DNA of 46,169 nucleotides from Candidatus Nealsonbacteria bacterium (GTDB lineage: Bacteria > Patescibacteriota > Minisyncoccia > Minisyncoccales > MHMH01). The DNA lies in the NCBI GenBank assembly GCA_016181965.1, contig JACOYH010000008.1, positions 1 to 46,169 of the forward strand, in the 5' to 3' direction. The position numbers and the translations under genes were made by a program. Of this stretch, positions 5,183 to 28,639 are shown piece after piece. Each line of letters starts with the position of its first letter. Position 1 is the first letter of the stretch. The notes beneath the pieces were generated by a model, which was given only the letters and a program-made list of their open reading frames with translations, was not told the origin of the DNA and did no database searches.

Positions 5183-7195
5183 TTAGTTGATTTTATATAT
5201 TCTCGCAAATTCGTTGGCTTCGGAATTATCAAATTTTAATTCCAAACGGCTATTTGCCAAACATTTTTGCTCTAAATCCCGGGGCCAATATTTATTCACG
5301 TATAAATAATGATAGCCCAAGGATTTTAAGGACTCGGTCTCGCAATTTTCCAGAATATTTTTATAAACAGATACTTGGGGAGCGAAGGCGTCATAGCGGC
5401 TTTCCATATTTTTTTGAATGTTATACCAGTAAAGAAAGTCCGGAGCAAATCTGCCCGTCCGAATGATGAAAGAAGAATTATGATAAGTCCCGGCATTAAT
5501 CTCTCCAAAAGTGAAAAAGATATCGGGAATTTCGGTTTCCTTTTGAATCCAGTTAAACGCTTCTTTTTCCACCGCGTTCAAGGCGGGCATTTGTCTTCCT
5601 AAAAATGGCCGTCCGAATTGCAAATCGGGAAAAACAGAAAATAATAAGAGGTAGATCATGCCTTGAAAGATAACCACTAAAACAAACAGTCCCAACAAAA
5701 TTTTCTTCCAATAAGACCTAAAATGTAAAATCAAAACAGCCAAAACAAAACCAAAAATTAAATTCCAGAAAAGCGCAGATAAATAATTTATGTCAACGAA
5801 ATCACCTTGCGATATGCCGGCGTTGACAATCAGGGGGATGGCGAAAGAGACGATAATAAGTAAAACCAAGAATGAACCGACCTGAGGATGCCGCGCGATT
5901 AGATACGCGGCCGCGGGGATAATAAAAAATATCAGCCAGCCCCAACCGAAAATAAAATCCTGGCCAAAAATCGGAACTGCAACGTTCTCATTTGTAACAT
6001 TAATTAGCGCTAAACCCTTGAAAAGATATTCCGGACTTATTGAAAAATTATGGCTGATGGGCGAGGCATGGCCAAAAAATACCTGCCTCGCAGTTTGGCT
6101 GACAATGCCGCCCTGTAAAAAAGCGAATAAAATACCTAAAAATAATATCAAAAGAGAGATTTTAAAATATACCCTGCCCAATTTTAGGTCCTTTTTAAGG
6201 AGAGCGTAAATCGCGGGAAAAGCGATAAAAACCGCCGCAAAGACGCTAAAGAAAAGTTCGGCAACTAACGCGAGAACAGCAAAAAGAACTGCGCAAAGCA
6301 GAGAAATCTTGAGCCAATGATTTTGCTCGTGGGCGGCTCTGAAATAAAGATGCATTATCGTTAAAGATAGGGCGAAACCCAGCAATACCCATGGAACTTC
6401 AAAATAGATTGTTATGATACTGCCGTGAATTTCCTTGCCAAATATCATATCGCTGACAAACCTAAAGGGCGCGTCAATCGGCTGAGCTAAAATAAATTTT
6501 CGGTATAGCGACGACAATCCGTCTATGCCATAAAGAAAGTTCAGATTACCGCCGAAAAGCATCACTAGGGCGCCAAGAAAGGCCTTAAAATTGCTTCGGC
6601 AAAAATTTCTTATCAATAAAAATCCCAATAGAAATATTGCGCCTATAAGGATGCCGTTCTGAAGGTCGTGGCCAAGCCAAACTGGCAGGCCGGTCACCCT
6701 GGCTATGGCTGCCAAAAATAAATTATAACCATAATGGTATTGGGAAGGAAATTCGGGCGCGAATACGGCCCTAACCGGAAAATTGCCCTCGGAAATAGTG
6801 GCCGCCAAGGGCAAGTGATCATAAAACATTTGGTCTGAAGATTCGCTGCGCAGAGCGATGACTCCGGCGACGGCGATGATTAAAAAAGTTGTGCCCAGCA
6901 AAATCATGCGCCATTTCTTCGTCATCTCCCATTTTGGCGCTTCTTTATTTTTGTTAACAACGCTCAAGACGCCGGCAGTCGCGGCCAAAACGGCCAAGAG
7001 CAAATAAAAATTAACGCGGATATCGATAAAATACGATGACAAATTCAGAAGGAAAATATAAGAGGAAAAACCGATGGTAATTGCCAAGGGAATTAGCATC
7101 TCAATGCTTTTTTCATTCATCAAAAACCTGACTGCCTGCCAGCCAAACGCAAACAATATGGCGAAAAAAATAATTAATAAAAATAGAGTCAGCAT
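5183..7195 (-). CDS. Large polytopic membrane protein with a C-terminal soluble domain, possibly a GT-C-like glycosyltransferase
   Basis: 670 aa with more than 12 hydrophobic segments and a roughly 140 aa polar C-terminus. Lies between a radical SAM gene and a methyltransferase in the glycan operon. No family motif recognised with certainty. Confidence 0.45.
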   Translation of the reverse strand: MLTLFLLIIFFAILFAFGWQAVRFLMNEKSIEMLIPLAITIGFSSYIFLLNLSSYFIDIRVNFYLLLAVLAATAGVLSVVNKNKEAPKWEMTKKWRMILLGTTFLIIAVAGVIALRSESSDQMFYDHLPLAATISEGNFPVRAVFAPEFPSQYHYGYNLFLAAIARVTGLPVWLGHDLQNGILIGAIFLLGFLLIRNFCRSNFKAFLGALVMLFGGNLNFLYGIDGLSSLYRKFILAQPIDAPFRFVSDMIFGKEIHGSIITIYFEVPWVLLGFALSLTIMHLYFRAAHEQNHWLKISLLCAVLFAVLALVAELFFSVFAAVFIAFPAIYALLKKDLKLGRVYFKISLLILFLGILFAFLQGGIVSQTARQVFFGHASPISHNFSISPEYLFKGLALINVTNENVAVPIFGQDFIFGWGWLIFFIIPAAAYLIARHPQVGSFLVLLIIVSFAIPLIVNAGISQGDFVDINYLSALFWNLIFGFVLAVLILHFRSYWKKILLGLFVLVVIFQGMIYLLLFSVFPDLQFGRPFLGRQMPALNAVEKEAFNWIQKETEIPDIFFTFGEINAGTYHNSSFIIRTGRFAPDFLYWYNIQKNMESRYDAFAPQVSVYKNILENCETESLKSLGYHYLYVNKYWPRDLEQKCLANSRLELKFDNSEANEFARIYKIN

Positions 7196-7199: not shown

Positions 7200-7955
7200 T
7201 TATTTTTTAGCTAAACAAAAAACACTTAAGCCGACCGGCATTTTTATATTCGCGGCTATCAATTTATTTTCGGCCTTAATCAGGTTAAGTAAAATTCCGT
7301 TAAAAAGGGGGTTGACCCGCCAGAGCTGGTCTTTTGCCTGACTTTTTTCCACAAATAATTTTTGCAAAATCCTAACTAATCCCACCGGGAAAAATAAAGG
7401 AAAATTCCAATAAGAGGATTTTTCCGGCTCAAAACCGCCGCCGCGCAATAATTCATTGAGTTGTTTTTTTGAATACCTTTTTTGATGCAAATTAATCTCG
7501 TCATGATTGCTCCAAAGAAACCCGAAGGCGGGCACAAAAACAATCAGTTTGCCGCCCTTTTTTAGGATTCTTCTCCATTCGGAAATTGTCTTCTCTTGTT
7601 CGGCAACATGCTCTAAAACATCAGAGGCCAGCACGATATCGAAATAATTATCCTCAAAACCAGTGTCTTTGGCGTCGGCCAGTTTGACGTTGGCGATTCT
7701 TTTCGTTCTGCAAACGTCAAGCGCGTCTTGGCTGATATCTATGCCGAAGAGATTGAGAAACCCCCTATTTTTTAATTCCTCGAGCAAAAGCCCGCCCGAA
7801 CACCCGACATCAAGTATTTTAGCGTCTTTGGGCATGGACTCCGTTAAACGCAAAATCATATCGCGTCTTCCGCGAAACCACCAATAGTTTTCTTCCAGAT
7901 TATGCATTTTTAATTCGTAGCTTTTCTTCATTTTATTGGAATAAAAACCAGACAA
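7200..7955 (-). CDS. Class I SAM-dependent methyltransferase
   Basis: Motif I ILDVGCSGGLLLEEL and post-I/II FDIVLASDVLEHV. Confidence 0.8.
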   Translation of the reverse strand: MSGFYSNKMKKSYELKMHNLEENYWWFRGRRDMILRLTESMPKDAKILDVGCSGGLLLEELKNRGFLNLFGIDISQDALDVCRTKRIANVKLADAKDTGFEDNYFDIVLASDVLEHVAEQEKTISEWRRILKKGGKLIVFVPAFGFLWSNHDEINLHQKRYSKKQLNELLRGGGFEPEKSSYWNFPLFFPVGLVRILQKLFVEKSQAKDQLWRVNPLFNGILLNLIKAENKLIAANIKMPVGLSVFCLAKK

Positions 7956-8622
7956 GCATATTTTTTACGCAGCTAATTGAGTTTGAGAAATTTACCGTTG
8001 ATTTTCCTCTCTTTCTTTCAAGAGGAACCACCGGCATTTCCATAATCGAGAAATTATTGCGCTTAGCTTTAATGAGTATCTCGGCGTCAATAAAGAAGTC
8101 CTTGGACACAAGTTTGGCGGTTTCATAAAAATGCCTGGTGAAAATTACAGGGCCTCCGTCTATATCTTTTGAATTGACTCCGAACATGACGCGGAACAGC
8201 ACATTATAACTCTTACTGATGAATTTGCGAATAAACCCTTCGGCCCGATTAATCCTTACGCCTTTGCATATATCTAAATTTTTATTTACCAGTTCTTTAT
8301 AAAGAGAAATCAGGTCCGCGGATCTGGCCTGTCCGTCGGAATCCATAAAAGCCAAAATGTTGCCCTGGGCGGCGTTCATGCCCTGAATTATGGCATTGCC
8401 GTAGCCCCCATTGTTCTCTATATTAATTGTTTTCAATTGGCTTATCTGCTTTTCCAGGGATTGCAAAACTTCTTTTGTATTATCGGTAGACCCGTCATTA
8501 ACAACAATCATTTCCGATTGCAGGCCAAATGCATTGAGAGAGTTTTTTAAATCAGTCAAAACTTCAGAAAGATTTTCCTCCTCATTGTGAGCCGGCAGAA
8601 TAATCGAAAAAAATGTGTTCAT
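7933..8622 (-). CDS. GT2 glycosyltransferase (soluble, DPM1-like)
   Basis: FSIILPAHNEEENL..VVNDGSTDNT..FMDSDGQ (DxD region). Confidence 0.85.
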   Translation of the reverse strand: MNTFFSIILPAHNEEENLSEVLTDLKNSLNAFGLQSEMIVVNDGSTDNTKEVLQSLEKQISQLKTINIENNGGYGNAIIQGMNAAQGNILAFMDSDGQARSADLISLYKELVNKNLDICKGVRINRAEGFIRKFISKSYNVLFRVMFGVNSKDIDGGPVIFTRHFYETAKLVSKDFFIDAEILIKAKRNNFSIMEMPVVPLERKRGKSTVNFSNSISCVKNMLVWFLFQ

Positions 8623-8626: not shown

Positions 8627-9280
8627 TTATATAAAATCCGAGGCCTTCAGCTCGATTAAACTTTTAATTTTAATATCTGGTGAATATGCTTGCTCTCCAA
8701 AATCATCATCATTGGTCAGCCAAACGCATTTCATTCCAGCCCTTTTGGCGGCTATAACTCCGTGCCTGGCATCTTCTATAACCCAGCATGTTGAGGGAGG
8801 AACTTCCAATCTTTGGGCCGCCAAAAGAAATATATCCGGCGCCGGTTTGCCAAATTTAACTTCTTGCCCGTTAATAATCGTCTCAAAGCTGTCTTTTATG
8901 CCAAGTTCGGACAAAACGAGCTCAATAAACTCCGGCCTAGAGGAAGAGGCAACAGCCAAAAGGAAGTTATCTTTTTTCAATTGGTCAATTAAACCGAAAA
9001 CGCCATCAATGGGCGCAATCTTGCTCTTGGCGAAATCAATTAACCTGGTCCATTTCTCTTTGACAAATTTATCAAGATCAACCTCTTTGCCGTGTTCTTT
9101 GAAAATAATTTCAGCGCAGTCCCTATCGGGCACTCCGGCATATTTCCGCGTAAGCTCTGCGGCTGGGATCTCGATGCCGTGCTCTTTTAAGAGTAATTCC
9201 TCGAGCCCGGCGTGCAATGGCTGGCTATCTGCAATAACTCCGTCCATATCAAAAATAACAGCTTTTATTGTTTTCCCCAT
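8627..9280 (-). CDS. HAD-IA hydrolase (beta-phosphoglucomutase-like sugar phosphatase/mutase)
   Basis: Motif I VIFDMDGVIADS, motif II LAVASSS, and a C-terminal CWVIEDARHGVIAAKRAGM (E-D in place of the usual D-D). Confidence 0.85.
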   Translation of the reverse strand: MGKTIKAVIFDMDGVIADSQPLHAGLEELLLKEHGIEIPAAELTRKYAGVPDRDCAEIIFKEHGKEVDLDKFVKEKWTRLIDFAKSKIAPIDGVFGLIDQLKKDNFLLAVASSSRPEFIELVLSELGIKDSFETIINGQEVKFGKPAPDIFLLAAQRLEVPPSTCWVIEDARHGVIAAKRAGMKCVWLTNDDDFGEQAYSPDIKIKSLIELKASDFI

Positions 9281-10716
9281 TGATGGAATGCGTTAACGAA
9301 TCTAATAATATTCTCGGTGGTCTTGGGATGCGTAGCCATTTTTTCTAAAACATCCAACGGGGTTGCGACAATGTGCGCGCCTGCTAAAAATGCGTCCACA
9401 ACATCTTTCATATTCTTGGAGCGAATGCCTCCCACAATTATCTCGGTATTCGTACTTTTTAGAAGTTGAGAACTGTTCTGAACCATCTTAAATGGGTCAA
9501 CTCCCATATCCTTAATGGCCGAAGAATTGATATAAAAATAACTCGCTCCGGCGTTGGCTGCTACGATTGCCTGGGCCTCATTCATACCGGAAGCGCACTC
9601 AACATTAATTTGATTTTCAGACAATTCCTTAATAATTCTTGCCTCTTCCCACCCCAACGGAATCCTTATGGTCAAATTGTTGTATCCAATCTGATTAATG
9701 ATATCTTTGGCCCGCTGAACAATATGTTCGGGGTCTTTTTCCGTCATCATAAGGCCTATGGGAATTTCCTGATGGTATTTTTTACACAAATCGGCCATTT
9801 CTTTTACAATATCAATATAGCCGTTGGCCATAATGTCCGGACTGGTAATAATGCCCGATAGAATATCTTTTTGAAGAGCTCTCTCCACTTCTTCGGGCGC
9901 ATTCGTTTCTAAAAATAGCTTAAGATTGTTGTTTTGCATAAGTTTTTTATTAATTATTTTGTGATTATTAAGTTGCGGCATTTTTGTAAACTCGCTCTCG
10001 ACCAAAAAAGCGTCATTGTCGTAGTCCCGGGTTGAAATTTCAATAACAACAGTATCTTCCAAACCTCCCGCCTGATGTATCAATCCCGGAGGAATATCTG
10101 CCGCCTGACCCGGATCGACGGCGAGATACTTGTCCTCCCCCTTGCCCGCCCTGAAACGCAATAAAAGTTTCCCGGAATGAACAAAATAGGTTTCTTTTTT
10201 TTGACAATGGAAATGAAAGCTGGAATTGTTGCCCTTTTTAAAGAATATCTTCTTGCCGGCATAAGCTCGGTTTACCATAGTCCAAAGAATGTCGGCCCAA
10301 TATTGGTCGCGGAAATTAAAGACCGTTGACTTCTTGAAAATTCCCTCTCTCAAATCATCGCTTGATGGAGGGCCGGAAAATAAGTAAAGGAAGGCATCTT
10401 CATTAGCTGTTATATCGATGTTTCCATTAATCTGATCGGCTGAAAATAGCAAGGTTTCTTGAGGCATCAACTCTTCTGATTTAAGAGAAACTTGGCCGCT
10501 CTCAATATAAACAGTCACTTCTCTGCCATGGAAATCTTGAGGATTAAGCAAGAAGACCGAACCCTTCTTAATATAAACCTGCGACAATCCGTACTGGTCG
10601 TTTTCGACGACCTTGCATAAATATCCCCACGGCGCTGCCGCTAATTGCGGAGTATAAACTTGCTGTTCTACTTCATTAATATCATAACCGTATTGATATA
10701 TTTTTGGTTTATTCAT
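9265..10716 (-). CDS. Bicupin domain fused to a transaldolase/fructose-6-P-aldolase-fold domain. The Schiff-base Lys position is Arg.
   Basis: Residues 1-250 hold two cupin barrels (SSFHFHCQKKETYFVHSGKL..IPPGLIHQ). Residues 265-483 match the TalC/FSA pattern LFLETN..GIITSPDI..NLTIRIPLG..VGGIRS. Codon 9664-9666 reads AGG (Arg) where the family has the catalytic Lys. Confidence 0.6.
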   Translation of the reverse strand: MNKPKIYQYGYDINEVEQQVYTPQLAAAPWGYLCKVVENDQYGLSQVYIKKGSVFLLNPQDFHGREVTVYIESGQVSLKSEELMPQETLLFSADQINGNIDITANEDAFLYLFSGPPSSDDLREGIFKKSTVFNFRDQYWADILWTMVNRAYAGKKIFFKKGNNSSFHFHCQKKETYFVHSGKLLLRFRAGKGEDKYLAVDPGQAADIPPGLIHQAGGLEDTVVIEISTRDYDNDAFLVESEFTKMPQLNNHKIINKKLMQNNNLKLFLETNAPEEVERALQKDILSGIITSPDIMANGYIDIVKEMADLCKKYHQEIPIGLMMTEKDPEHIVQRAKDIINQIGYNNLTIRIPLGWEEARIIKELSENQINVECASGMNEAQAIVAANAGASYFYINSSAIKDMGVDPFKMVQNSSQLLKSTNTEIIVGGIRSKNMKDVVDAFLAGAHIVATPLDVLEKMATHPKTTENIIRFVNAFHQWGKQ

Positions 10717-11665
10717 AAATTTTGATTAAATCCTGTTTATTAGCGGGGCTGGTACCGAGAATAGTGGTTGATAAAGCCGCCCAGGTATTGGCTATGCCAA
10801 TGCTGTCTGCTGGCTTTTGCCTATCGCCGAGACTGAAAGCCGCCAAGAAAGCATCTCCGGCCCCGCATGGGTCGACAACTTGCACCTGATGGGCCGGATG
10901 TATTATGAATTGGCCATTAAAGAAAACCGCTGACCCGCGCGCTCCCAATTTCACTACCACATTGGATAGTTCTAATCTTGCCTTGATTTCTTTTACGGAA
11001 AATTCCGGATTATCAGCATCAAATCCGGCGTAGACGGTTCTGGCCTCTGCCTCGTTTAAAAACAAGCAATCTGCTCCCTGATACAACCGGTGATTGCCGC
11101 CCTTGTGTGAGATTTGGGAATCAACATACATCGGTTTATTATATTTTTTGGATAAATCGATTAATTGCTGAATCAAGGCTTCGGTCATAAGGCCATGCCT
11201 TGCATCAAGAACCACAATAAGGTCTGCTTGATTCAAGATGGGCTCTATTTTAATGATTAAATTTTTCTCGATTTCCGGAGAAATATCTTGATTATTAACC
11301 CGATTGGCTTGAAATATTTTTTGGCCGTTAATCCAGAATCTCTTTTTCACAATTGTCGGACGTTGAGTATCAACGATGAAATACTTCTTTAGATTAGGAT
11401 GAACGAAGGAATCGTAGGATTGGGCCGCGGCATCATCTCCCACAATCGAGAAGAAAATAACCTGTCCCCCAAGTTCCAGAATGTTATTGGCTACTCCGCT
11501 CGCCCCGCCAAAACTTAGCGCAACTTGTCCCTCCTCAATTTCCGCGGCCCGAGAATCAGAGGATTGGCAAACCTCTTGCCCGGTGCTGTAAACATCCAAA
11601 ATAGTGTCGCCTATTAAAAGCACCTTCTTCTGTTCAAAATCTTTTATAATATCAAGTTCTCTCAT
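10709..11665 (-). CDS. PfkB-family sugar kinase, RfaE/HldE domain I-like (heptose-7-phosphate kinase candidate)
   Basis: KVLLIGDTILDVY.., GGASGVANN, and the C-terminal DPCGAGDAFLAAF anion-hole motif typical of ribokinase/PfkB. Confidence 0.8.
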   Translation of the reverse strand: MRELDIIKDFEQKKVLLIGDTILDVYSTGQEVCQSSDSRAAEIEEGQVALSFGGASGVANNILELGGQVIFFSIVGDDAAAQSYDSFVHPNLKKYFIVDTQRPTIVKKRFWINGQKIFQANRVNNQDISPEIEKNLIIKIEPILNQADLIVVLDARHGLMTEALIQQLIDLSKKYNKPMYVDSQISHKGGNHRLYQGADCLFLNEAEARTVYAGFDADNPEFSVKEIKARLELSNVVVKLGARGSAVFFNGQFIIHPAHQVQVVDPCGAGDAFLAAFSLGDRQKPADSIGIANTWAALSTTILGTSPANKQDLIKIYE

Positions 11666-11686
11666 ATGATTTCTGAAAAACTTGCC

Positions 11687-12751
11687 CTACTTTTTGCCTT
11701 GGGCCCTCCTGATAATCTCCGTAGTTGAAAATTCGGCCAAAATCGGGCAAACGCGGACTTCTACTTCTGCCGGCACTTTGTCTATTTCTCTAAGCCGTTC
11801 CGGCGTCAAATCAACTGCTTTGGCCAAAATATGGGGCTTTAATTCGTTAATAATGTTAATTGTTTCAACATCATCAAAAATAACCACCTGGTCCACATAA
11901 TCCAAGGACTCGAGAACCGACTGCCTCGTTCGTTCATCGTTAATCGGCCGATCGAGACCTTTTAATATTTTTACGGCTCTGTCGGAGTTGATGCCCACTA
12001 TCAGTTTGTCTCCCAGGGATTTGGCGAATTTCAGCAAACTGATGTGGCCGGGATGCAGTATATCAAAGACCCCATTCGTGAAAACAACTTTTTCTTCTGT
12101 TTTGGCCTGATTACCGGATAATCTTTCCAAAATATCAAGAGGAACCGTAACAATATGCGCGCCGGCCAAAAAAGCGTCGATCAGATCCTTCATATTCTTG
12201 GGGCGGACTCCGCCAACGATAATCTCGGTGTGCGTTCCTTCGAGCAATTTACGGCTTTTCCTGATGACCTCGAAAGAATCGCCGCCCATATCCTTGATAT
12301 GGCAAGAAAAGATGGAGAAATAGTGTGCTCCGGCGTTAGCGGCTAATATTGCCTGGGCCTCATTCATGCCGCAAGTACAATTTACCTTAATGCCGCTTTT
12401 TTCCAATTCTCTAATGACTCCCAACTCTTCCCAGCCAATGGGAATTTTCACATTGAGATTGCTGTAATCAATTTTAGAAGCAAATTCCCTGGCCTGGGCA
12501 ATCATTTTATCCGGCTCTGATTCTGTCACCATTATGCTGATGGGCACTTCTTGAGCGTATTTCTTGCATAAATCAGCCATCTTTTGAACATGGTTTATAT
12601 AATCGGCCCGGGGATCATTTCCCGCCCGTTCCTTGGCGATAATATCCGGGTTGGTAGTTAAACCGGATATAATTCTTTGCTGCAGGCACTTTTCAATCTG
12701 CCCTAAGTCCGCTGTATCTAAAAATAATTGGAGTTCTTTAAAATGGTTCAT
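11687..12751 (-). CDS. Transaldolase/FSA-fold domain fused to an RfaE/HldE domain II-like nucleotidyltransferase
   Basis: N-terminal LFLDTADL..GLTTNPDI..NLNVKIPIG, with Lys retained at codon 12446-12448. C-terminal VVFTNGVFDILHPGHISLLKFAKSLGDKLIVGINSD..RP is the cytidylyltransferase HxGH family, closest in pattern to heptose-1-P adenylyltransferase. Confidence 0.8.
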   Translation of the reverse strand: MNHFKELQLFLDTADLGQIEKCLQQRIISGLTTNPDIIAKERAGNDPRADYINHVQKMADLCKKYAQEVPISIMVTESEPDKMIAQAREFASKIDYSNLNVKIPIGWEELGVIRELEKSGIKVNCTCGMNEAQAILAANAGAHYFSIFSCHIKDMGGDSFEVIRKSRKLLEGTHTEIIVGGVRPKNMKDLIDAFLAGAHIVTVPLDILERLSGNQAKTEEKVVFTNGVFDILHPGHISLLKFAKSLGDKLIVGINSDRAVKILKGLDRPINDERTRQSVLESLDYVDQVVIFDDVETINIINELKPHILAKAVDLTPERLREIDKVPAEVEVRVCPILAEFSTTEIIRRAQGKK

Positions 12752-13890
12752 ATTTTATAGCCCTTAGGCAGTAAATTAATTTTTAATAATATTTTTTTGT
12801 ATGCCGGCGTAATTTCCCATCTCTTTTTGCTCGCTTCGAAATCGCACGCCTGCGTGATAAAAAAGCGGTTTTTACAATACAGGCAATCAACCGGATACTT
12901 GCCCCCTATCATATTTTTTCTGAAATTTACCATCAAGGAGCTATTGAAATCATAGCCCTGGAATATATTGCCTATCTCCGGCCTATCTTTTAGATGACAG
13001 CAGAAAGCCACATCGCCCCCCTGGCCCATAACAACGTAATGCCACAATTGCGGGCAGGCCTGTTTGGCGAAAAAATCGGAATCCGGGTCAAAAATAATCG
13101 GCATCCTGATTGAAAAAGGATAATCGTCTCTTTTCAACACCTCTTTTAGAAAATTCTGCACAGCCGGAGCATTGGCCCTAAGCGGCGTCCATTCCTTTGA
13201 GCCGTGCGGATTGCCGGATTCAAACTGGAGTCTTTCCGGTTTTACTTTTTCGGCAAATTCCAAAATCTTTTTAACTTCCGGCAGATTTTCTTCAAATAAG
13301 AGAAAACTGATGCGAAAAGGAATACCTGCGTCCCGGAGCAGATAAATACCTTCAATAATATTGTTATACTGTTCCCTGGTGGCGCCTCTTATTTTTCTAA
13401 ATGATTCGTAATCAACTCCGTCCAAGCTGATGTTTATTTTATCAAATTTCTTTAGGGCCTCAATTCTTTGTTTTATTAATGTCCCGTTTGTCGGCATCAC
13501 GAGCTTTAGGCCCCTGTTTTTGACGCTCTGAACGATCTCGGAAAATTGCGGATGCATAGTCGGTTCTCCGCCCGTCAGGCCAACAATGCGTATTTCCTTT
13601 TGATATTTATCTAAAATCCAATTAAACTGCTCCAGCGTCATATCTTTTGCATTATCAAAGGTTTTTTCGTCTCGCAGCAAAAAGGTGCAGGCCGGGCATC
13701 GAAAATTACACTTGAATGTAATGCCGATATTAAATTCATCTGGAACATAGGATATTCTTTCTTTTCTCCCGAGTGACATTTCCACTAAATATCGTTTCCA
13801 ATAAAATTTGGCGTTTTGAAAATTTCCGGCGGCATTCCTAATAAATCTCGTCAGCGGCTTATTAAAAATTGATTTTAGTTGGCTGACCAT
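12748..13890 (-). CDS. Radical SAM protein with a C-terminal SPASM/twitch-like Cys-rich domain
   Basis: CNFRCPACTF (CxxxCxxC), GGEPTMHP, and C-terminal cysteines CPQLW..AFCCHL..CLYCKN. Start placed at the ATG at 13890 (MVSQLKS), 4 nt after the stop of the small upstream ORF. The track start at 13965 is a TTG overlapping that ORF. Confidence 0.75.
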   Translation of the reverse strand: MVSQLKSIFNKPLTRFIRNAAGNFQNAKFYWKRYLVEMSLGRKERISYVPDEFNIGITFKCNFRCPACTFLLRDEKTFDNAKDMTLEQFNWILDKYQKEIRIVGLTGGEPTMHPQFSEIVQSVKNRGLKLVMPTNGTLIKQRIEALKKFDKINISLDGVDYESFRKIRGATREQYNNIIEGIYLLRDAGIPFRISFLLFEENLPEVKKILEFAEKVKPERLQFESGNPHGSKEWTPLRANAPAVQNFLKEVLKRDDYPFSIRMPIIFDPDSDFFAKQACPQLWHYVVMGQGGDVAFCCHLKDRPEIGNIFQGYDFNSSLMVNFRKNMIGGKYPVDCLYCKNRFFITQACDFEASKKRWEITPAYKKILLKINLLPKGYKI

Positions 13891-13894
13891 ACGC

Positions 13895-14068
13895 TTACCA
13901 TTGTTTAAGGGTATTTTTCGCCCTATCTTTAAATTTTTTATAGACCCCGTAAACCCCATCCTCAACCTCCGGTAGCATCCGTTTAATGGTACTTTCAGAA
14001 ATTTTCAGAAAGTCCCGGGCCTCGCTAGTGGTATATATTTGGTTTGGTTTTATTTCTTCTGGCGCCAT
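13895..14068 (-). CDS. Small (57 aa) helix-turn-helix-like protein, a possible local regulator
   Basis: Below the ORF-track size cut-off. Hand translation: MAPEEIKPNQIYTTSEARDFLKISESTIKRMLPEVEDGVYGVYKKFKDRAKNTLKQW. The segment TTSEARDFLKISESTIKRML resembles the excisionase/MerR-type HTH_17 pattern. Confidence 0.4.
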   Translation of the reverse strand: MAPEEIKPNQIYTTSEARDFLKISESTIKRMLPEVEDGVYGVYKKFKDRAKNTLKQW

Positions 14069-14074
14069 ATTTTA

Positions 14075-14103
14075 ATCATATGTTAGCCCAACAAGGGTGT
14101 CAA
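14075..14103 (-). promoter_or_regulatory. Sigma70-like promoter placed for a leaderless transcript of the small HTH ORF
   Basis: On the minus strand: TTGACA (14103-14098), a 17-nt spacer, then TATGAT (14080-14075). The ATG at 14068 lies only 6 nt after the -10 element. Confidence 0.4.
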
Positions 14104-14125
14104 TAGGTGTCAATAGGTGTCAAAA
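14096..14125. repeat. Three tandem 10-bp repeats, GGTGTCAATA GGTGTCAATA GGTGTCAAAA
   Basis: Read directly. The array abuts the stop codon of the epimerase gene (14126). Each unit carries TTGACA on the minus strand. Confidence 0.9.
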
Positions 14126-14914
14126 CTAAGGAAAGTGACGAGTTAAGTAATCCTCAATGCCCTGCTCTAAACTGTATTCGGCCTTAAATCCCCAGCTGAC
14201 ATCGGCCTTAGTATATTGCTGATAAGCTCCTTTATAGGGATTCTTTATGTAAATGGGTTTCAAATTAGTTCCCAGGGTTTTTCTAACAGCTGCCAACACG
14301 TCGTCATAAGTTCTTGGTTTGCCTGTCCCCACATCATAGATGCCGTTTTTCAATTTAATGGCTTGCATAAAGGCCCTGACCGCGTCTTTGACATAAATAT
14401 GGTCTCTTTTGGATTTTCTTTCAGAACCAAAGGCCTTGGGTCTCTGGCCTTTCTGGATTTGCAGAGCCCACTGCGCAATCACGCTGGCCATATTTCCTTT
14501 TTGAATTTCATTTGGCCCGAAAACATTAAACGGCCGCAAACCGACTATGGGCATTTTGTCAAAAAAATATTCGGCTATTTCGTCGCCTGTTATTTTGGAT
14601 ACGGCATAAGCGGTTTTTGTATATTTGCCGTACACGGCTGCGCTTGAAGCATAAATGAGTTTTGATTTTCCCTTTAAGGCAAATTCTATAATATTAAGGA
14701 AACAAAATAAATTGTTTTTCAGGGTCACTATCGGTTCGTCTCGGGTGGAACTAATGGCGGCCAAGTGGAAAATCACATCAAAATCATTCTTAATTTTAAT
14801 GGGTTTCCGCAGATCGCGATTATAAACAATCACCTTGTTTTTGCGATTTTTCTTTAATTCCTTTGCCAGATTTGACCCGATAAATCCCTTGGTTCCGGTT
14901 ATAAAATACTTCAT
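14126..14914 (-). CDS. hldD: ADP-L-glycero-D-manno-heptose 6-epimerase-like extended SDR (short form, 262 aa)
   Basis: GTKGFIGSNL Rossmann motif and YAVSK (YxxxK). LIYASSAAVYG, RPFNVFGPNEIQKGNMASVIAQ, RDHIYVKDAV and YQQYTKADVS parallel the HldD motifs [43 protein letters not shown] and YQAFTQADLT recalled from E. coli HldD. Confidence 0.65.
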   Translation of the reverse strand: MKYFITGTKGFIGSNLAKELKKNRKNKVIVYNRDLRKPIKIKNDFDVIFHLAAISSTRDEPIVTLKNNLFCFLNIIEFALKGKSKLIYASSAAVYGKYTKTAYAVSKITGDEIAEYFFDKMPIVGLRPFNVFGPNEIQKGNMASVIAQWALQIQKGQRPKAFGSERKSKRDHIYVKDAVRAFMQAIKLKNGIYDVGTGKPRTYDDVLAAVRKTLGTNLKPIYIKNPYKGAYQQYTKADVSWGFKAEYSLEQGIEDYLTRHFP

Positions 14915-14917
14915 AAG

Positions 14918-16276
14918 TTATATATAAATTTTTTTGTTTAATCGCTGTTTCCAGAAAGAATAAATTATTTCAAAAAAACCGTGGGGAGGTAAATTGACAA
15001 GAATCCTTGTTAGGGGCAATAAAAACGGGAAAGAAACCGTAATGGTAAACAACTTTTGCAGATTCTTGATTTTGTCTCGGTCGGGGATCTTCAGGGGACT
15101 TTCTCCAAAATAAGAGGTCTCCAAAATTCTGTTAAAATCTCCGTCATAGAGACCCATTTTGACAACCTCGTCTCCCAATTCGGTCCGAGGATATGGCTGG
15201 TAAATGGTTGGCCAAGCCATATCTGCCTTACAAACAATATTTAGCCCTAGGGTTTCAAAGTCGTCCTTAAGTGAGCCGTGAGGAATACCTAATATATTGT
15301 AAGTTCTTAAATACAAACCGGCTTTTTTGATATGTCTGGCGGCGCTGATGATTTGTTCTTTGGTGATATTCTTTTTAAGAATTTTATTGCGTAAATCATC
15401 ATTAGCCGTTTCAATCGCCATAGAAACTCCGGTGCAACCCGCTTCTCTCAATAGCCCGGCGAATCTTTCATTAATCGCATCGGCCCTCTCGTTGCAGTGA
15501 AATGGTGTGTTGACCAATTTTTTGTATTTTGAAGAAAACTCTTCCAGCCAATCCATGCGAAACCCGAGATTATCGTCTTGAAAGTAAAACATTTTTACTG
15601 GGTATTGATTTTTTACTTCCAGTATTTCTTCAATTAAATTATTAACGTTTCTGACGCGAAGGTAAACCCCTCCGTGCTGATTTTGATAAATTTCTTTTAA
15701 ATGATGGTTATAGCAAAAAGTGCAATTGTAGGGACAACCCCGAGAGCCGGTGACCCCCCTAATTGGATTATGATAGGACTTGGGATATTTATCGTAAACC
15801 AGTCCTCGGTCGGGGAAAACTATTGAATTAATATCGGCCAATGGCCTGACTGGATTCTTAAAAATCTTTCCGTTTTTTTTAATCCACAAGTTTGGAATAT
15901 CGGTAAAATCTTGTCTGTCTCGGCACCGGTCGGCCAAATCAACAATAGCTCCTTCGCCCTCGCCGACGCAGATGGCGTCAACGCCGTCTTCATTAATGAA
16001 CTCGCTGAAAAAAGTGGCGTGGGGACCGCCAAAAATAGAAATGAAATTGAATTTTTGCTTCAATTCCCGATTAAGATCGCGGAAATATACATGGGCTCCG
16101 GTAATGATACTGTAACCGACGATATCCGGCATAAAACTTTTCATCGTTCCCTCAATATCTTCCGTGTCGGCCTTAACAATATCGGTGTGGTGGCCTGCTT
16201 GCTTCAAAGCCGCCGACAGATACATAATTCCAAGCGGTTCAATAATGAAGTCCTTAGCAACGAATAAAATGCGCAT
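14918..16276 (-). CDS. B12-binding-domain radical SAM enzyme, paralog 2
   Basis: MRILFVAKDF..GYSIITGA..IFGGPHATF B12-domain layout. CxxxCxxC in RGCPYNCTFC. Confidence 0.85.
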   Translation of the reverse strand: MRILFVAKDFIIEPLGIMYLSAALKQAGHHTDIVKADTEDIEGTMKSFMPDIVGYSIITGAHVYFRDLNRELKQKFNFISIFGGPHATFFSEFINEDGVDAICVGEGEGAIVDLADRCRDRQDFTDIPNLWIKKNGKIFKNPVRPLADINSIVFPDRGLVYDKYPKSYHNPIRGVTGSRGCPYNCTFCYNHHLKEIYQNQHGGVYLRVRNVNNLIEEILEVKNQYPVKMFYFQDDNLGFRMDWLEEFSSKYKKLVNTPFHCNERADAINERFAGLLREAGCTGVSMAIETANDDLRNKILKKNITKEQIISAARHIKKAGLYLRTYNILGIPHGSLKDDFETLGLNIVCKADMAWPTIYQPYPRTELGDEVVKMGLYDGDFNRILETSYFGESPLKIPDRDKIKNLQKLFTITVSFPFLLPLTRILVNLPPHGFFEIIYSFWKQRLNKKIYI

Positions 16277-17445
16277 TAGGGTGATATCTGCTGATTATCG
16301 CTATTTTTATTAAGCAAAGAAACTGCGGCGCTGAATACATCTTCGGGATTGATTTGCTTAAGACATTGCAAATGTCCCCCTTCCTTGCAGAAAGAAGCGA
16401 ATGATGGACTAAATAAGCAGGGACAGCAATAGAGTTTTTTCTGAACTATCGCGCAACGCTCATGTATGGGGCTTTGTTCATAAATATCAACAGGACCGGG
16501 GATATCAACCGAGAGAATATTCAAGGCATCGGCAATATAAAGCGGCCCCGTATCACCGCTAATGAATAATTTCAATTCTTCCATTAAAGCGGGCAGTTCG
16601 CGCAAATTAAAATAGCCGGCAGTATCAATACTGTTATTTTGCATCATTTCTTGAATTTTTCCAATAACGACTCTGTCGCCAAGCGAGCCTATAAAAATTA
16701 TCTTGGCTTCCAATCTTTCAATTAATAAATCGGCGAGGGCGGCGAATTTTGCCGGCTCCCATTCTTTGAATTTAACGCCGGCGGCAACACAAACGCCAAT
16801 CAGTAAATCATTGGGGTTCAAATTTTTATCTTTAAGAAAATCAAACGCCTTTTTTCTCTCATCGGGCTGGATAAAAATTTCTTTTCTCTCCGAATAATTC
16901 TCAATTCCTATAAATTTCAATAAAGCCAAGTAATGTTTAATTCTTGATGTGTGGCTTTTATATTCCAGACGATAATTGTTAAAAATAGAAAGCAGGCCGA
17001 TTGTTTCGCCAAAGTATCTATGGGTAGTTATCGCTCGATTCTTAATTAAAGACCAAAGTCCCAACATATTGATGAAATAGTCGGGAAAAAGGCCGAATAC
17101 CCAATCGTAATGGTCGCGTCTTAATTTTTTAATGAGCCGCAATCCTCCTTTAATGCCGCTATAATCGTTAATCACTATAATTTCGTCAATTCTCGGATTA
17201 TTCTTCAAAACATCTTTGGCCTGAGCCAAAACCATAGCCGTCAAATAACAATTCGGAAAATTTTTTTTAATTTCGCGGAAAACCGGGGTCGTACAAACCA
17301 AATCCCCTATTTTTGCGGTTTGGATAACTAAAATTTTAGGCCTTTCATTTTGTTTTCTAAAAAAAATAAGGAAATAAAAGAGAGGCGCCAGGAGATAGGT
17401 AGCAATTAGCCAGAAAAAACTATTAAAATAAGCTTGAACTTTCAT
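16276..17445 (-). CDS. GT9-family glycosyltransferase (heptosyltransferase-like) with an N-terminal TM anchor
   Basis: KILVIQTAKIGDLVCTTPVFREIKKNFP (GT9 N-terminal signature), KEWEPAKFAALADLL, and GDTGPLYIADAL in place of the usual DSGPMHLAAA. Confidence 0.8.
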   Translation of the reverse strand: MKVQAYFNSFFWLIATYLLAPLFYFLIFFRKQNERPKILVIQTAKIGDLVCTTPVFREIKKNFPNCYLTAMVLAQAKDVLKNNPRIDEIIVINDYSGIKGGLRLIKKLRRDHYDWVFGLFPDYFINMLGLWSLIKNRAITTHRYFGETIGLLSIFNNYRLEYKSHTSRIKHYLALLKFIGIENYSERKEIFIQPDERKKAFDFLKDKNLNPNDLLIGVCVAAGVKFKEWEPAKFAALADLLIERLEAKIIFIGSLGDRVVIGKIQEMMQNNSIDTAGYFNLRELPALMEELKLFISGDTGPLYIADALNILSVDIPGPVDIYEQSPIHERCAIVQKKLYCCPCLFSPSFASFCKEGGHLQCLKQINPEDVFSAAVSLLNKNSDNQQISP

Positions 17446-20181: not shown

Positions 20182-21591
20182 TCATACAGACAATATGGCC
20201 ATAGCTCCCTGCCAGTATCTTTTGATGTCTTCAAATCCGCGGATAGAGAGGACTTTGGGCGCAATATAGCTCAAGCGAAAATGAAATTTCATATATGCGT
20301 ATTTCTTTGTTTTCTGTAATTCTTCCATACTTTTGTATCCCTCGGGCAGAAAGGTGGCAAAATATCCGGTCAGCTTATCGTATGACTCATCAACCATCCT
20401 GCCCCACTTGCCTTCTTTAATTTCTTTATAGAGCGCGGTCTCGGGATAGGGAGTCAGGATATTAAACTTTACATAGTCAGGATTCAGCTTACAAAGCGTC
20501 TTGAGCATTTTTCGGACTTTTTCCGGCGTTTCCTTGGGCAACCCCAAAATGAAATTCGCCCTGCTCTCAATTCCCGCTTCTTTGGTCCACGAAAGGGCTT
20601 GCGTAATCTGTTCAATAGTTATCCTTTTATTGACTGCCTCTAATATTTCCGGGTCCAAACTTTCTATGCCAAAAAAAATGCACCGGCAACCGGCCTTCTT
20701 CATCTTTTCTAACAGGTCTCGGGCGATCGTATTGACTCTGCACTCGCACGACCATGTCAGGTCGATTTTTTCCCGGAGAATCGTCTCGCAGAATTCCTCA
20801 ATCCATTCCCTATTTAAACCCCAAACATCATCCCAAAAATTTATCTCTTTTATGCCGTAATTATCTATGAGATGCTTTATTTCTTTGATAACGCTTTGAA
20901 CCGATCTTATGCGGTATTTCCTTGTCCAAATTGCCTCGGTATTGCAAAAAGTGCAATTGTACGGACAGCCGCGGCTGACCATCATCGTGGTCATTGGCGT
21001 TCGCTTATACTGATTTGGCGAAGGCCTATATGATAAAAGCGGCACCAAATGCCTGGCTGGAAAAGGCAGAGAATCCAATTCCCGTATCAATTCCCTGCGG
21101 GGGGTTATCACGGCTTCGCCGTTTTCCTTAAAGCCGATTCCTTTGACCGCCCTTAAATCAGTTTTTGTTTTGAGGCCATTCAGCAACTCCACCAGCGAAA
21201 GCTCGCCCTCGCCAATAACAATATAATCAACGCAATTATTGGATAAAACCTCAAGTGGCCTGATGGTAACGTGGGGCCCGCCAAAAATAATCGGGATATG
21301 CAATTTTTCTTTTATGCCTTGAGCCAGCTCTAAAGTGTGTCGGTAGTTGGAAGTGTTGCAGTATAGGCCCGCAACATCGGGACTCTGGCCGGCGCATCGT
21401 TCAATTGTTTCCTCCATCGTCCAATTGTGAAGCTGGGTGTCCAATATCTTCGGCTTAAAGCCATTGTTCTCCAGCGCCGCTCCTAAATATAAAAGTCCGA
21501 GCGGAGGCAAACAGGAACCGATTTTTTCAATCCCTCGGCCATACCTTTCCTTCATGGAAAATGGAGGCATAATGAGCAATATATTTTCCAT
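20182..21591 (-). CDS. B12-binding-domain radical SAM enzyme, paralog 4
   Basis: MENILLIMPPF..GLYCNTSN..IFGGPHVT. CxxxCxxC in RGCPYNCTFC. Confidence 0.85.
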   Translation of the reverse strand: MENILLIMPPFSMKERYGRGIEKIGSCLPPLGLLYLGAALENNGFKPKILDTQLHNWTMEETIERCAGQSPDVAGLYCNTSNYRHTLELAQGIKEKLHIPIIFGGPHVTIRPLEVLSNNCVDYIVIGEGELSLVELLNGLKTKTDLRAVKGIGFKENGEAVITPRRELIRELDSLPFPARHLVPLLSYRPSPNQYKRTPMTTMMVSRGCPYNCTFCNTEAIWTRKYRIRSVQSVIKEIKHLIDNYGIKEINFWDDVWGLNREWIEEFCETILREKIDLTWSCECRVNTIARDLLEKMKKAGCRCIFFGIESLDPEILEAVNKRITIEQITQALSWTKEAGIESRANFILGLPKETPEKVRKMLKTLCKLNPDYVKFNILTPYPETALYKEIKEGKWGRMVDESYDKLTGYFATFLPEGYKSMEELQKTKKYAYMKFHFRLSYIAPKVLSIRGFEDIKRYWQGAMAILSV

Positions 21592-26467: not shown

Positions 26468-26513
26468 TGCCTTGTTATCGCCCCTATTTAACTGCAGCGA
26501 AATTTATGCCGCT

Positions 26514-26774
26514 CTAATTTTCTTCAAGGATTTTAAGTGTTTCTATGACCGACGGGTTGTCTGTGGGCAGATACTTTATGCGATTTCCATACATATTTTT
26601 TAGCGCAGTGAAAAATTCATCCGCCCAAGATGGCGAAAGAGAAATAACGCCGGCAAAATCAATCTCCACCACTTCGGCATTCGGGTCAAGAGTCGGACGA
26701 ATTGCCGCAAACGCCTCCTTTCCAGCAGGACGCGAGGTAAGCACTTTTCCGAATTTTTTAAGCTCTATTCGCAT
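26514..26774 (-). CDS. STAS-like DUF4325 domain protein
   Basis: MRIELKKFGKVLTSRPAGKEAF..VVEIDFAGVISLSPSWADEFF matches the DUF4325 pattern. Start taken at the internal ATG. Confidence 0.6.
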   Translation of the reverse strand: MRIELKKFGKVLTSRPAGKEAFAAIRPTLDPNAEVVEIDFAGVISLSPSWADEFFTALKNMYGNRIKYLPTDNPSVIETLKILEEN

Positions 26775-26780
26775 AGTTAA

Positions 26781-26830
26781 ATCTACCAAAACTTGTCAAT
26801 ATCTACCAATGCTCTACCAAAATCTACAAA
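26781..26830. repeat. Four direct copies of ATCTACCAA-like 9-mers (minus strand TTGGTAGAT)
   Basis: Copies at 26781-26789, 26801-26809, 26812-26820 (CTCTACCAA) and 26822-26830 (ATCTACAAA). They lie immediately upstream of the DUF4325 gene, with a TTGACA among them. Confidence 0.8.
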
Positions 26831-26832
26831 AA

Positions 26833-27585
26833 TTATCCTTTTTTCCTTACCGCTTCTGTATAACTGCAATAATCGCAATTGGGGCTGGCGCCGGGAATTT
26901 TATCGCCGTTGAGGCAGTTATGAATATCAGCAATTGTTTTACCTATCCAAGAGTCATCGCCCTCGTAGGCAATCAAGCTGACCCTAAACTCCAATTTTTG
27001 GTCAAAGGCCTTGGCGTCGGCAATGCCGTTGCAGTAGACAAAATAACCGGTATCTGAAACCTTATAGCCATTTCTTCGTAAAAGCCACTGATAAACTTCC
27101 ATTTGCCTTTTGTAGCTATCGTGCCATTCTTTATCCAGCGCGGTAATCTCCTCGGCCTTGGCCGTTGACTTATAGTCCACCACAATATATTCGCCTTTTG
27201 AATTCTGCCAAAGGTCGTCAATGGCGCCGGAGACCAAAAAATTGGTCGGCTCGTGCAAAAACTGCACGCCCGTAAAATTATGCCTCCATTTGTCCAGGTC
27301 CTTATGGGGCACGGGCCGCGCGTCAACTCCATATTTTTCAATCAAAGGATGTTTTGTGCCGTTGGCCCGGTGCGTGTCAAACTCCTGCTTCAGCAAAGCA
27401 TCAACCGCCGAATTGAGGGCAAAGGGAAAGCCCGGCGGCCTAGCCACTCCCAGCCGCCGGTCATAATAAAAACACCTCGGACACTGCGAAAACAAATCAA
27501 TCTTTGAGCGCGACAGCTTAAATGGTTCTATCGCATTGGGATCGTATAATCCCCTCACTCTTTGAGAGTTATAATATTGGGACAT
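26833..27585 (-). CDS. PD-(D/E)XK nuclease, Cas4/RecB-like, with Cys ligands
   Basis: GAIDDLW, VVDYKST and QMEVYQ motifs. An N-terminal CPRC plus C-terminal C..CDYC suggest an Fe-S or Zn site. Confidence 0.7.
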   Translation of the reverse strand: MSQYYNSQRVRGLYDPNAIEPFKLSRSKIDLFSQCPRCFYYDRRLGVARPPGFPFALNSAVDALLKQEFDTHRANGTKHPLIEKYGVDARPVPHKDLDKWRHNFTGVQFLHEPTNFLVSGAIDDLWQNSKGEYIVVDYKSTAKAEEITALDKEWHDSYKRQMEVYQWLLRRNGYKVSDTGYFVYCNGIADAKAFDQKLEFRVSLIAYEGDDSWIGKTIADIHNCLNGDKIPGASPNCDYCSYTEAVRKKG

Positions 27586-27622
27586 AATTTAACTTCTAAC
27601 TTATGACGCATCATCATTCCTT

Positions 27623-28182: not shown

Positions 28183-28213
28183 GTTTTAATTCAAGCTACA
28201 AGCATTATCGTTT

Positions 28214-28636: not shown

Positions 28637-28639
28637 GTA

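Follow-up and report, generated by a model that had tools for sequence, protein, structure and literature searches.

How can a heptose-type sugar be activated in a bacterium whose genome encodes relatives of the heptose enzymes and lacks the SIS-type isomerase GmhA? This question is raised by a block of genes at positions 8,627 to 17,445, minus strand, of contig JACOYH010000008.1 from Candidatus Nealsonbacteria bacterium (assembly GCA_016181965.1), a member of the candidate phyla radiation (CPR). The window, i.e., the whole stretch of DNA analyzed, is this complete 46-kb contig (C15; 46,169 nucleotides), within which the studied interval forms part of a long minus-strand operon. We consider it rather likely that the genes from 14068 to 8627, together with the upstream genes for a short-chain dehydrogenase/reductase (SDR) and a family 9 glycosyltransferase (GT9), encode a GmhA-independent route to a nucleoside diphosphate (NDP)-activated C7 or C8 aldose for a surface glycan. 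The activated sugar would probably be ADP-linked and beta-anomeric. The genes and gene parts that carry this proposal are the following:

8627-9280, minus strand: hydrolase of the HAD-IA/beta-phosphoglucomutase (beta-PGM) family (PF13419, 1e-34; TIGR02009, 139 bits)
9265-10716, minus strand: bicupin fused to a transaldolase/fructose-6-phosphate aldolase (TAL_FSA) domain, 483 amino acids (aa); PF00923 match over residues 301-470 and cupin signals over 131-235
9943-10716, minus strand: bicupin part (aa 1-258), metal motif intact in the C-terminal barrel
9265-9942, minus strand: second transaldolase-fold part (TAL2; aa 259-483), Schiff-base lysine lost
10709-11665, minus strand: PfkB kinase resembling HldA and domain I of HldE (TIGR02198 rfaE_dom_I as top NCBIfam family; HldA, PDB 4e84)
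11687-12751, minus strand: TAL_FSA (residues 9-221) fused to CTP_transf_like (224-349), 354 aa (Pfam)
12110-12751, minus strand: first transaldolase-fold part (TAL1; aa 1-214), joined to the nucleotidyltransferase
11687-12109, minus strand: nucleotidyltransferase (NT) part (aa 215-354), resembling HldC and domain II of HldE (rfaE_dom_II; PDB 5x9q)
14126-14914, minus strand: HldD-like SDR epimerase, 262 aa (GxxGxxG, Ser, YxxxK)
16276-17445, minus strand: GT9 glycosyltransferase of the heptosyltransferase family (PF01075, 4e-20)

An original prediction, derived from the open reading frames (ORFs) of this stretch, had combined these genes into one NDP-heptose-related pathway with the SIS isomerase missing and, in its place, two transaldolase-fold domains, of which one is fused to a bicupin; cupins were named as a group that includes phosphosugar isomerases. 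Profile scans of the window proteins with Pfam and NCBIfam, complemented by PDB matches by sequence, recovered every part listed in it as an intact minus-strand ORF, and the assignment of the hydrolase to HAD-IA rather than to the GmhB type agrees with the family matches given above. The split of HldE that had been described as a rearrangement is indeed present, but such a split is ordinary; what is unusual are the fusions and the cupin.

These fusions and the gene order around them provide the link between the individual enzymes. TAL-NT fusions form 13 protein clusters of at least 76% identity (NCBI, JGI, ENA and Logan assemblies), and their loci are always ordered HTH_17 gene or SDR-radical SAM gene, [TAL-NT], PfkB, bicupin, TAL2, HAD, with GT9 and B12-radical SAM genes in the vicinity. 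The order [TAL-NT]-PfkB-bicupin(-)TAL2(-)HAD is kept in four independent assemblies, in which TAL2 is either fused to the cupin (source genome and locus L071) or to the HAD protein (L070) or is free (L002). Since TAL-NT recurs across assemblies in constant gene order, the fusions are not assembly artefacts. Across all loci compared, we encountered the combinations TAL-NT, RpiB-NT, RpiB-NT-PfkB, cupin-TAL, cupin-HAD, TAL-HAD and PfkB-cupin. Because fusions and synteny thus connect TAL, cupin, PfkB, HAD and NT with each other, the five act in one pathway, which upholds the original prediction on this point and also in its inclusion of the transaldolase-fold proteins. Among the CPR fusion proteins, sizes of 361-392 aa for NT-GmhB (L013, L014 and L015), 439 aa for PfkB-cupin (L015), 647 aa for RpiB-NT-PfkB (L019) and 412 aa for a tandem NT-NT (L017) were noted.

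The nearest homologs stem from metagenome-assembled genomes named Candidatus Nealsonbacteria, Taylorbacteria and Saccharibacteria. A sister cassette found in CPR bacteria and in IMG/VR carries an RpiB-NT fusion and has the families of PfkB, bicupin, TAL and NT (64-68% identity) in common with the source cassette; the identity of the source NT to that of GmhA-type CPR clusters is about 40%. GT9 is present in the fetched cellular copies, and an HTH_17 head gene as well as a 670-aa membrane protein occur in some of them. The arrangements comprise [RpiB-NT]-PfkB-bicupin-TAL-AraD-like followed by a homolog of the 670-aa membrane protein (L004), [GT9-GT2]-[RpiB-NT-NT]-PfkB-AraD-like-HAD-HAD-bicupin (L005), GT9-[RpiB-NT-PfkB]-[bicupin-TAL]-HAD (L019), a further RpiB-NT cassette from Taylorbacteria (L008), and SDR-GT9-NT-PfkB-[bicupin-HAD]-TAL from Saccharibacteria (L006). 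The RpiB of the sister cassettes scores above the rpiB equivalog cut-off and their AraD-family epimerase above its subfamily cut-off. The source block therefore differs from its sisters in that RpiB and AraD are absent from both cassette and genome, TAL replaces RpiB at the N-terminus of NT, and TAL is duplicated with both active sites altered. By these comparisons, it is a lineage-restricted variant of a widespread uncharacterized cassette that consists of NT, PfkB, cupin, HAD and TAL and in which RpiB and AraD are optional, and its novelty would lie in TAL as the NT partner, the TAL duplication with complementary losses and the absence of RpiB and AraD. In a full-text search of the literature, neither TAL-NT nor cupin-TAL fusions were found to be described, nor a cupin that isomerizes sedoheptulose-7-phosphate or octulose-8-phosphate, nor ADP-heptose in CPR bacteria.

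With regard to the missing isomerase, the entire source genome was surveyed (603 kb, 15 contigs, estimated completeness 99.15%). GmhA (TIGR00441) is not encoded in it; the best match, with 23 bits, resides in a bifunctional phosphoglucose isomerase/phosphomannose isomerase (PGI/PMI) that passes its own cut-off and is the sole SIS protein of the genome. For the GmhB-type HAD-IIIA family (TIGR01656) only a 19-bit match was obtained, on the HAD-IA protein of the cluster itself. Neither RpiB nor an AraD-like protein, transketolase, phosphoketolase, phosphoribosyl pyrophosphate synthetase or TAL-fold genes beyond the two of the cluster were found, and a ribokinase-like PfkB is present (C13 184305-185297). 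The sugar-phosphate metabolism of the organism thus appears extremely reduced. As transketolase, phosphoketolase and RpiB are lacking, the TAL domains are not housekeeping pentose-phosphate enzymes.

No locus compared here, whether from CPR bacteria, viral contigs or cyanophages, contains both a cupin and GmhA. Full bicupins are too rare for correlating presence and absence over the phylum (one of 301 GTDB representative genomes, the source genome itself; 12 others contain a mono-cupin matching the C-terminal half), and co-occurrence was therefore assessed at the level of loci. In 60 tabulated cupin loci, i.e., 10 cellular loci, 48 viral contigs obtained by scanning IMG/VR with the cupin signature and two cyanophages, GmhA does not occur once (0/60). 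The 48 IMG/VR loci all contain NT, kinase and RpiB, and TAL (47), mini-HAD (46) and AraD-like genes (44) are nearly as regular, with GmhA in none. Conversely, a cupin is encoded in none of the GmhA-type CPR loci (four tabulated and two further fetched). GmhA-like genes were detected in 31 of the 301 phylum genomes, where they lie in canonical gmhA-hldA-gmhB-hldC-hldD operons devoid of a cupin. The phylum-level relatives have genomes of 0.5-2 Mb. L015 derives from a genome without GmhA and is organized GT9-SDR-[NT-GmhB]-[PfkB-cupin]; it corresponds to the canonical set, except that the position of the isomerase is taken by a cupin joined to the kinase. NT-GmhB fusions were seen in three of the CPR loci fetched, namely L013, L014 and L015.

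Cyanophages S-CAM1 and P-TIM68 possess a minimal cassette of NT, PfkB-like kinase, a HAD-like protein of 107-112 aa, cupin and SDR. In these phages (S-CAM1, L068 5691-6351; P-TIM68, L069 5941-6710), the cupin (phrog_7851) is annotated as "cysteine dioxygenase" and the adjacent HAD-like protein (phrog_1238) as "phosphoheptose isomerase". The presence of GmhA that the latter label implies was considered and rejected, as the proteins comprise only 107-112 aa, have no Pfam SIS match and also match a polynucleotide-kinase PHROG. Polynucleotide kinase carries a HAD-type phosphatase domain. The proteins are probably mini GmhB-like HAD phosphatases and both phage labels probably misnomers.

The bicupin itself carries the metal ligands H168, H170, E175 and H214 in its C-terminal barrel. 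In an alignment of 28 homologs, H170, K173, E175 and H214 are invariant and position 168 is H or E; the family is further characterized by the signature E-ISTxDxDxDSxLVEDG. The best PDB sequence match of the C-terminal barrel is a cupin-type PGI (2e-5), and the lyxose isomerase family Lyx_isomer (PF07385) is reached with 24.0 bits for the full-length protein and 22.6 bits for the isolated bicupin (cut-off 20.8), in a single short stretch; matches to PMI (PF01050) were obtained for relatives only. Given that cupin and GmhA were never met in one locus, that the metal ligands are conserved and that the sequence leans toward cupin-type PGI, lyxose isomerase and PMI, the cupin is the best candidate for a ketose-phosphate to aldose-phosphate isomerase that would replace GmhA non-homologously. 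Moreover, the source cassette, L015 and the minimal phage cassettes offer no isomerase candidate besides the cupin. There is a precedent for such a replacement: in the Thermococcales, a cupin-type PGI stands in place of the SIS-type isomerase for aldose-ketose isomerization of sugar phosphates. With the metal-dependent cupin-type PGI of Pyrococcus and Thermococcus and the likewise metal-dependent type II PMI cupins, the cassette protein shares the H-x-H...E...H arrangement of ligands. On the other hand, the similarity is weak, the cassette protein is a bicupin with its own signature, and its substrate is presumably a C7 or C8 sugar.

The two transaldolase-fold domains, both correctly recognized as such in the original prediction, are not equivalent. 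Both pass the Pfam PF00923 cut-off and both fall below the threshold of TIGR00875 (117.9 and 93.7 bits vs. 245.95). They were aligned with the transaldolase of Thermoplasma acidophilum (the sequence of its PDB chain except for the engineered T30D), and residues were interpreted according to the roles known for catalysis in transaldolases. TAL1 retains Asp6, Lys86, Asn108, Thr110, Phe132 and Arg169 of the reference and exhibits the changes Glu60→Met, Arg135→His and Ser167→Gly. In its own numbering, Asp12 and Lys102 (codon AAA, 12446-12448) are kept, while Met74 takes the position of the catalytic Glu and His151 that of the phosphate-binding Arg. The same pattern is present in four orthologs, all orthologs have Lys and Asp, and a stand-alone TAL from an analogous Nealsonbacteria cluster shows the Met and His changes as well. 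TAL2 differs from the reference by Lys86→Arg, Asp6→Glu, Asn108→Glu, Thr110→Ala and Phe132→Asn; in its own numbering, Arg351 (codon AGG, 9664-9666) replaces Lys and Glu270 replaces Asp. The TAL2 copies are not uniform in this respect: two have retained Lys, L071 alone among the five copies still has Asp, and all share Asn108→Glu. The complete transaldolase/FSA signature, which consists of Lys, Asp and Glu (in FSA, Gln combined with Tyr), is present in neither domain, and position 132 of TAL1 is Phe instead of the FSA-type Tyr. TAL1 may thus be a Schiff-base enzyme with altered acid/base chemistry, and TAL2, judged by its active-site residues, is not a Schiff-base transaldolase. This qualifies the earlier count of two domains: both folds exist, but only TAL1 can be an enzyme of this type. 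In TAL1, the NT domain occupies the place of the fold's C-terminal helix, and this very helix is highly conserved in TAL2 orthologs. The pattern suggests complementary degeneration after duplication into a catalytic, helix-less TAL1 and an inactive, helix-bearing TAL2, which probably serves as a non-catalytic scaffold.

Which activities can be assigned to the remaining enzymes? The NT domain scores best with TIGR02199 (rfaE_dom_II) and has HldC from Burkholderia (5x9q) as best PDB match. It contains FTNGVFDILHPGH, DRPIN and FSTTEII, and the motif series HxGH, RP(I/V)N and (F/L)xxGxSTT is represented by FDILHPGH, DRPIN and ILAEFSTT, with Glu for the Gly of the last motif. According to the summary of the work of Tang et al. 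in PMC11461863, the "STTR5" arginine is linked to promiscuity toward CTP and UTP. Phe stands in place of this arginine in the source NT, for which reason ATP is the likeliest nucleotide. A second, stand-alone CTP_transf_like gene was noticed on contig C8 (14221-14730); its 170-aa frame is open, matches FAD_syn weakly and is 34% identical to the NT of the cluster. The kinase matches TIGR02198 over its full length and HldA (4e84) with 1e-17 and is predicted to phosphorylate the anomeric C1. The SDR exhibits the motifs GTKGFIG, ASS and YAVSK, with HldD from H. pylori (3sxp) and from E. coli (1eq2) as closest PDB entries. GT9 passes the gathering threshold of PF01075 (72.8 vs. 22) and is closest to 3tov and WaaF (1psw). 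The HAD-IA protein is predicted to act as terminal-phosphate phosphatase in the stead of GmhB.

From these assignments a sequence of seven steps can be envisaged. TAL1 with its Lys and Asp would move a dihydroxyacetone unit from fructose-6-phosphate onto an aldose phosphate, yielding sedoheptulose-7-phosphate from erythrose-4-phosphate or octulose-8-phosphate from ribose-5-phosphate. The metal-dependent bicupin would convert the ketose phosphate into the aldose phosphate, as GmhA does elsewhere, the HldA-like PfkB would phosphorylate O-1, and HAD-IA would remove the terminal phosphate, which is otherwise the task of GmhB. The HldC-like NT domain would then generate the NDP-sugar, to be epimerized by the HldD-like SDR and tailored by the radical SAM and B12-radical SAM enzymes, before GT9 transfers the sugar, a task in which a family 2 glycosyltransferase (GT2) and the 670-aa membrane protein may share. 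TAL2 without its Lys would be a non-catalytic partner. It may anchor the cupin, or in relatives the HAD protein, to the oligomer of TAL1-NT, and may also provide the C-terminal helix missing from TAL1 since the fusion.

With the ADP-L-glycero-beta-D-manno-heptose pathway (GmhA; HldE or HldA and HldC; GmhB; HldD; WaaC/WaaF) this scheme shares an anomeric PfkB, an HxGH nucleotidyltransferase, an SDR and a GT9, as well as the step logic of isomerase, kinase, phosphatase and nucleotidyltransferase. It differs by the metal-binding bicupin instead of SIS-type GmhA, by a phosphatase of the HAD-IA (beta-PGM) instead of the HAD-IIIA type of GmhB, by TAL folds fused to NT and cupin, by embedded radical SAM genes and by its occurrence in a CPR bacterium. 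CPR bacteria are expected to lack lipopolysaccharide (LPS).

A number of observations weigh against the proposed route. The NT, PfkB, SDR and GT9 proteins score below the thresholds of the respective heptose families (TIGR02199, 142.8 bits vs. an equivalog cut-off of 181.5; TIGR02198, 167.6 vs. 345; TIGR02197 heptose_epim, 196 vs. 274.6, with an SDR about 45 aa shorter than HldD; heptosyltransferase II TIGR02195, 104.7 vs. 134.6). As all NCBIfam equivalog cut-offs are missed, the four proteins are best described as apparent relatives of heptose enzymes and not as certified members of these families. The replacement of the catalytic Glu by Met74 may render transaldolase activity of TAL1 weak or altered, and HAD, as a member of the beta-PGM family, could be a mutase instead of a phosphatase. 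When compared with PDB structures by Foldseek, the AlphaFold model of the bicupin (residues 1-259; predicted local distance difference test, pLDDT, 90) retrieved exclusively generic bicupins, namely oxalate decarboxylase (OxdC), MncA, BacB, DR1152 and seed globulins. The outcome of a profile search of the PDB was likewise limited to generic bicupins, such that neither search discriminated between functions. In the sister cassettes the cupin is combined with an RpiB above the rpiB cut-off, so that two isomerase candidates exist there. Finally, the absence of transketolase and phosphoketolase leaves the source genome with no evident source of erythrose-4-phosphate. The idea of a self-contained route from central sugar phosphates to sedoheptulose-7-phosphate, which was part of the original prediction, is not sustained for this reason.

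The last point bears directly on the identity of the sugar. If the product were strictly a heptose, sedoheptulose-7-phosphate would be converted into ADP-D/L-glycero-beta-D-manno-heptose, the cupin would be a simple replacement of GmhA and TAL would only top up sedoheptulose-7-phosphate. We regard this as a serious possibility, albeit one with less than an even chance. The closest characterized relatives of four of the enzymes are ADP-heptose enzymes, and the minimal cyanophage cassettes occur in phages whose hosts produce sedoheptulose-7-phosphate in the Calvin cycle. Furthermore, canonical CPR clusters place TAL and a second transketolase beside gmhA-hldA-gmhB-hldC-hldD. In one CPR family (L072, contig G209 C2, and L073, contig G296 C1), a split transketolase and TAL lie immediately upstream of the canonical operon in the order transketolase-N, an ORF of 308-311 aa that is probably transketolase-C, TAL, ORF, gmhA, hldA, (gmhB), hldC, hldD. 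With a second transketolase copy elsewhere in the genome, the heptose operon thus has its own sedoheptulose-7-phosphate supply, and the position of TAL and transketolase beside canonical operons makes such supply genes a CPR theme. However, it is the GmhA-type clusters to which the pair of transketolase and TAL belongs; the cupin-type cassettes pair TAL with RpiB and AraD, and transketolase is found in two of the 48 viral cupin loci and in no cellular one.

This pairing of TAL with RpiB and an AraD-family epimerase, both pentose-phosphate enzymes, rather than with transketolase is the reason why the sugar may be an octose. TAL1 would then join a C3 unit from fructose-6-phosphate to ribose-5-phosphate in the manner of LmbR, and the cupin would isomerize octulose-8-phosphate on the way to an ADP-octose. 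In the lincomycin octose pathway (compared here by description), too, a dedicated transaldolase is clustered with enzymes for isomerization, anomeric phosphorylation, dephosphorylation and nucleotidyl transfer, and the five roles are taken by LmbR, LmbN, LmbP, LmbK and LmbO (PMC4351081; PMC5854111). That pathway sets a precedent for heptose-type enzymes acting on a C8 sugar built from ribose-5-phosphate and a C3 unit, and octulose-8-phosphate is made by transaldolases from ribose-5-phosphate together with fructose-6-phosphate (PMC5854111). The source genome would be in line with an octose insofar as PGI/PMI and the ribokinase-like PfkB are present and transketolase is not, but it lacks RpiB and AraD itself, and the Glu→Met change may bear on the activity of TAL1. 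Moreover, the enzymes of the lincomycin pathway come from other families: the isomerase is of the SIS type, the kinase belongs to the GHMP family and the nucleotidyltransferase, a guanylyltransferase, is HddC-like. Its product is an actinomycete antibiotic and not a surface glycan. Taken together, we hold the octose to be possible, though tentatively so and a little behind the heptose, and leave the remainder to something else. More doubtful still is the composite proposal that the cassette constitutes a widespread undescribed ADP-octose route with the bicupin as octulose-8-phosphate isomerase and with the TAL1/TAL2 split joining transaldolase, isomerase and NT in a complex.

A different role of the cupin, that of a sugar-nucleotide epimerase or ketoisomerase of the kind of RmlC, DdahB, MlghB, WbuC or Cap5F, with PGI/PMI or, in relatives, RpiB in charge of isomerization, is unlikely in our judgment. 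Cupin C3/C5 epimerases do act in heptose modification (PMC7949155), weak matches to WbuC and the Cap5F cupin were obtained, and RpiB accompanies the cupin in most cassettes. Yet the cupin is fused to TAL, HAD and PfkB, that is to sugar-phosphate enzymes, and never to NDP-sugar enzymes, no 4,6-dehydratase/reductase pair is present here, and the cassettes named above have no other isomerase candidate. In addition, its metal ligands are conserved, and RmlC-type epimerases are metal-independent. That a housekeeping pentose-phosphate enzyme and a TagD/RibL-type cytidylyltransferase were brought together by chance, with no heptose-like pathway behind them, is highly improbable and largely refuted by the comparative data, for although every heptose profile score is under its cut-off and HxGH and STT motifs are common to the whole cytidylyltransferase family, the gene order and the fusions recur in CPR as well as in viral loci, no transketolase and hence no pentose-phosphate pathway exists that TAL could serve, and for each of NT, kinase, SDR and GT a heptose-pathway family ranks first.

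The preferred reading, a GmhA-independent route to an activated C7 or C8 aldose, also has to accommodate the other genes in and around the interval, three of which, two for radical SAM enzymes and one for the HTH_17-like protein, lie within the interval and had not been mentioned before:

5183-7195, minus strand: 670-aa polytopic membrane protein, weak DUF2298 match, downstream in the same operon
7200-7955, minus strand: methyltransferase, downstream in the same operon
7933-8622, minus strand: GT2 resembling polyprenyl-phosphate sugar synthases, downstream in the same operon
12748-13965, minus strand: radical SAM enzyme (MoaA/twitch-like)
13895-14068, minus strand: HTH_17-like (excisionase-type) gene, 57 aa, heading the cassette (PF12728, E 0.0015, below cut-off)
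14075-14103, minus strand: promoter-like site TTGACA-17-TATGAT preceding the cassette (11/12 matches; consensus match only)
14918-16276, minus strand: B12-binding radical SAM enzyme

The promoter-like site is the top-scoring one between 8000 and 20200. HTH_17 genes of 81-85 aa also precede the NT gene or head the cassette in L004, L018 and L071. Since the TTG start of the radical SAM gene at 13965 overlaps the HTH gene, its real start is probably the ATG at 13890; orthologs of 375-379 aa are located at the same position in L002 and L070, and the enzyme is presumed to be sugar-tailoring. The B12-binding radical SAM enzymes form a set of four paralogs on the contig (3772-5232, 14918-16276, 17449-18966 and 20182-21591), and genes of this type flank the cassette in L002, L018, L019 and L071 as well. 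The enzyme at 14918-16276 is a probable C-methylating tailoring enzyme. A homolog of the 670-aa membrane protein follows directly after the cassette in L004 (4686-6695; E 8e-112), which is an unrelated metagenome contig, and this suggests a dedicated transferase or acceptor-side partner. Together with GT2 and the methyltransferase, the membrane protein suggests lipid-linked export and transfer outside of the cytoplasm in addition to transfer by GT9.

Further away, the window contains a GT2 fused to a Zn-dependent medium-chain dehydrogenase/reductase at 2-1669, a fusion that recurs in L018, at the margin of the analogous cluster from Nealsonbacteria (20582-20726; 613 aa, same Pfam pair). The glycan locus is split by a defense-type block at 26468-39673 that encodes a Res-like helicase, an N6/N4 DNA methylase, an OLD-family AAA-TOPRIM protein, a Cas4-like PD-(D/E)XK nuclease, an Apyc1-like metallo-beta-lactamase-fold hydrolase and a protein in which a phosphatase is fused to TspO. 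When the window was scanned for Rfam families and tRNAs, no matches were obtained.

NDP-heptoses are building blocks of LPS and other glycans and agonists of innate immunity, and their enzymes have lately been traced across kingdoms via homologs of GmhA, HldE and GmhB. A cassette with a cupin for GmhA and a HAD-IA protein for GmhB escapes such surveys, although it is spread over CPR bacteria, 48 IMG/VR viral contigs and cultured cyanophages. Should the cupin be the isomerase, a second case, besides the cupin-type PGI of archaea, would be at hand in which a cupin has displaced a sugar-phosphate isomerase of the SIS type. Should the sugar be an octose, the cassette would produce a new class of glycan precursor; under the composite proposal outlined above, octoses would be regular constituents of CPR surface glycans and targets of phage-encoded glycan remodeling. 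That a genome of 0.6 Mb with no pentose-phosphate pathway keeps about 20 kb for this glycan suggests that the glycan is important at the cell surface, probably for interactions with hosts or phages.

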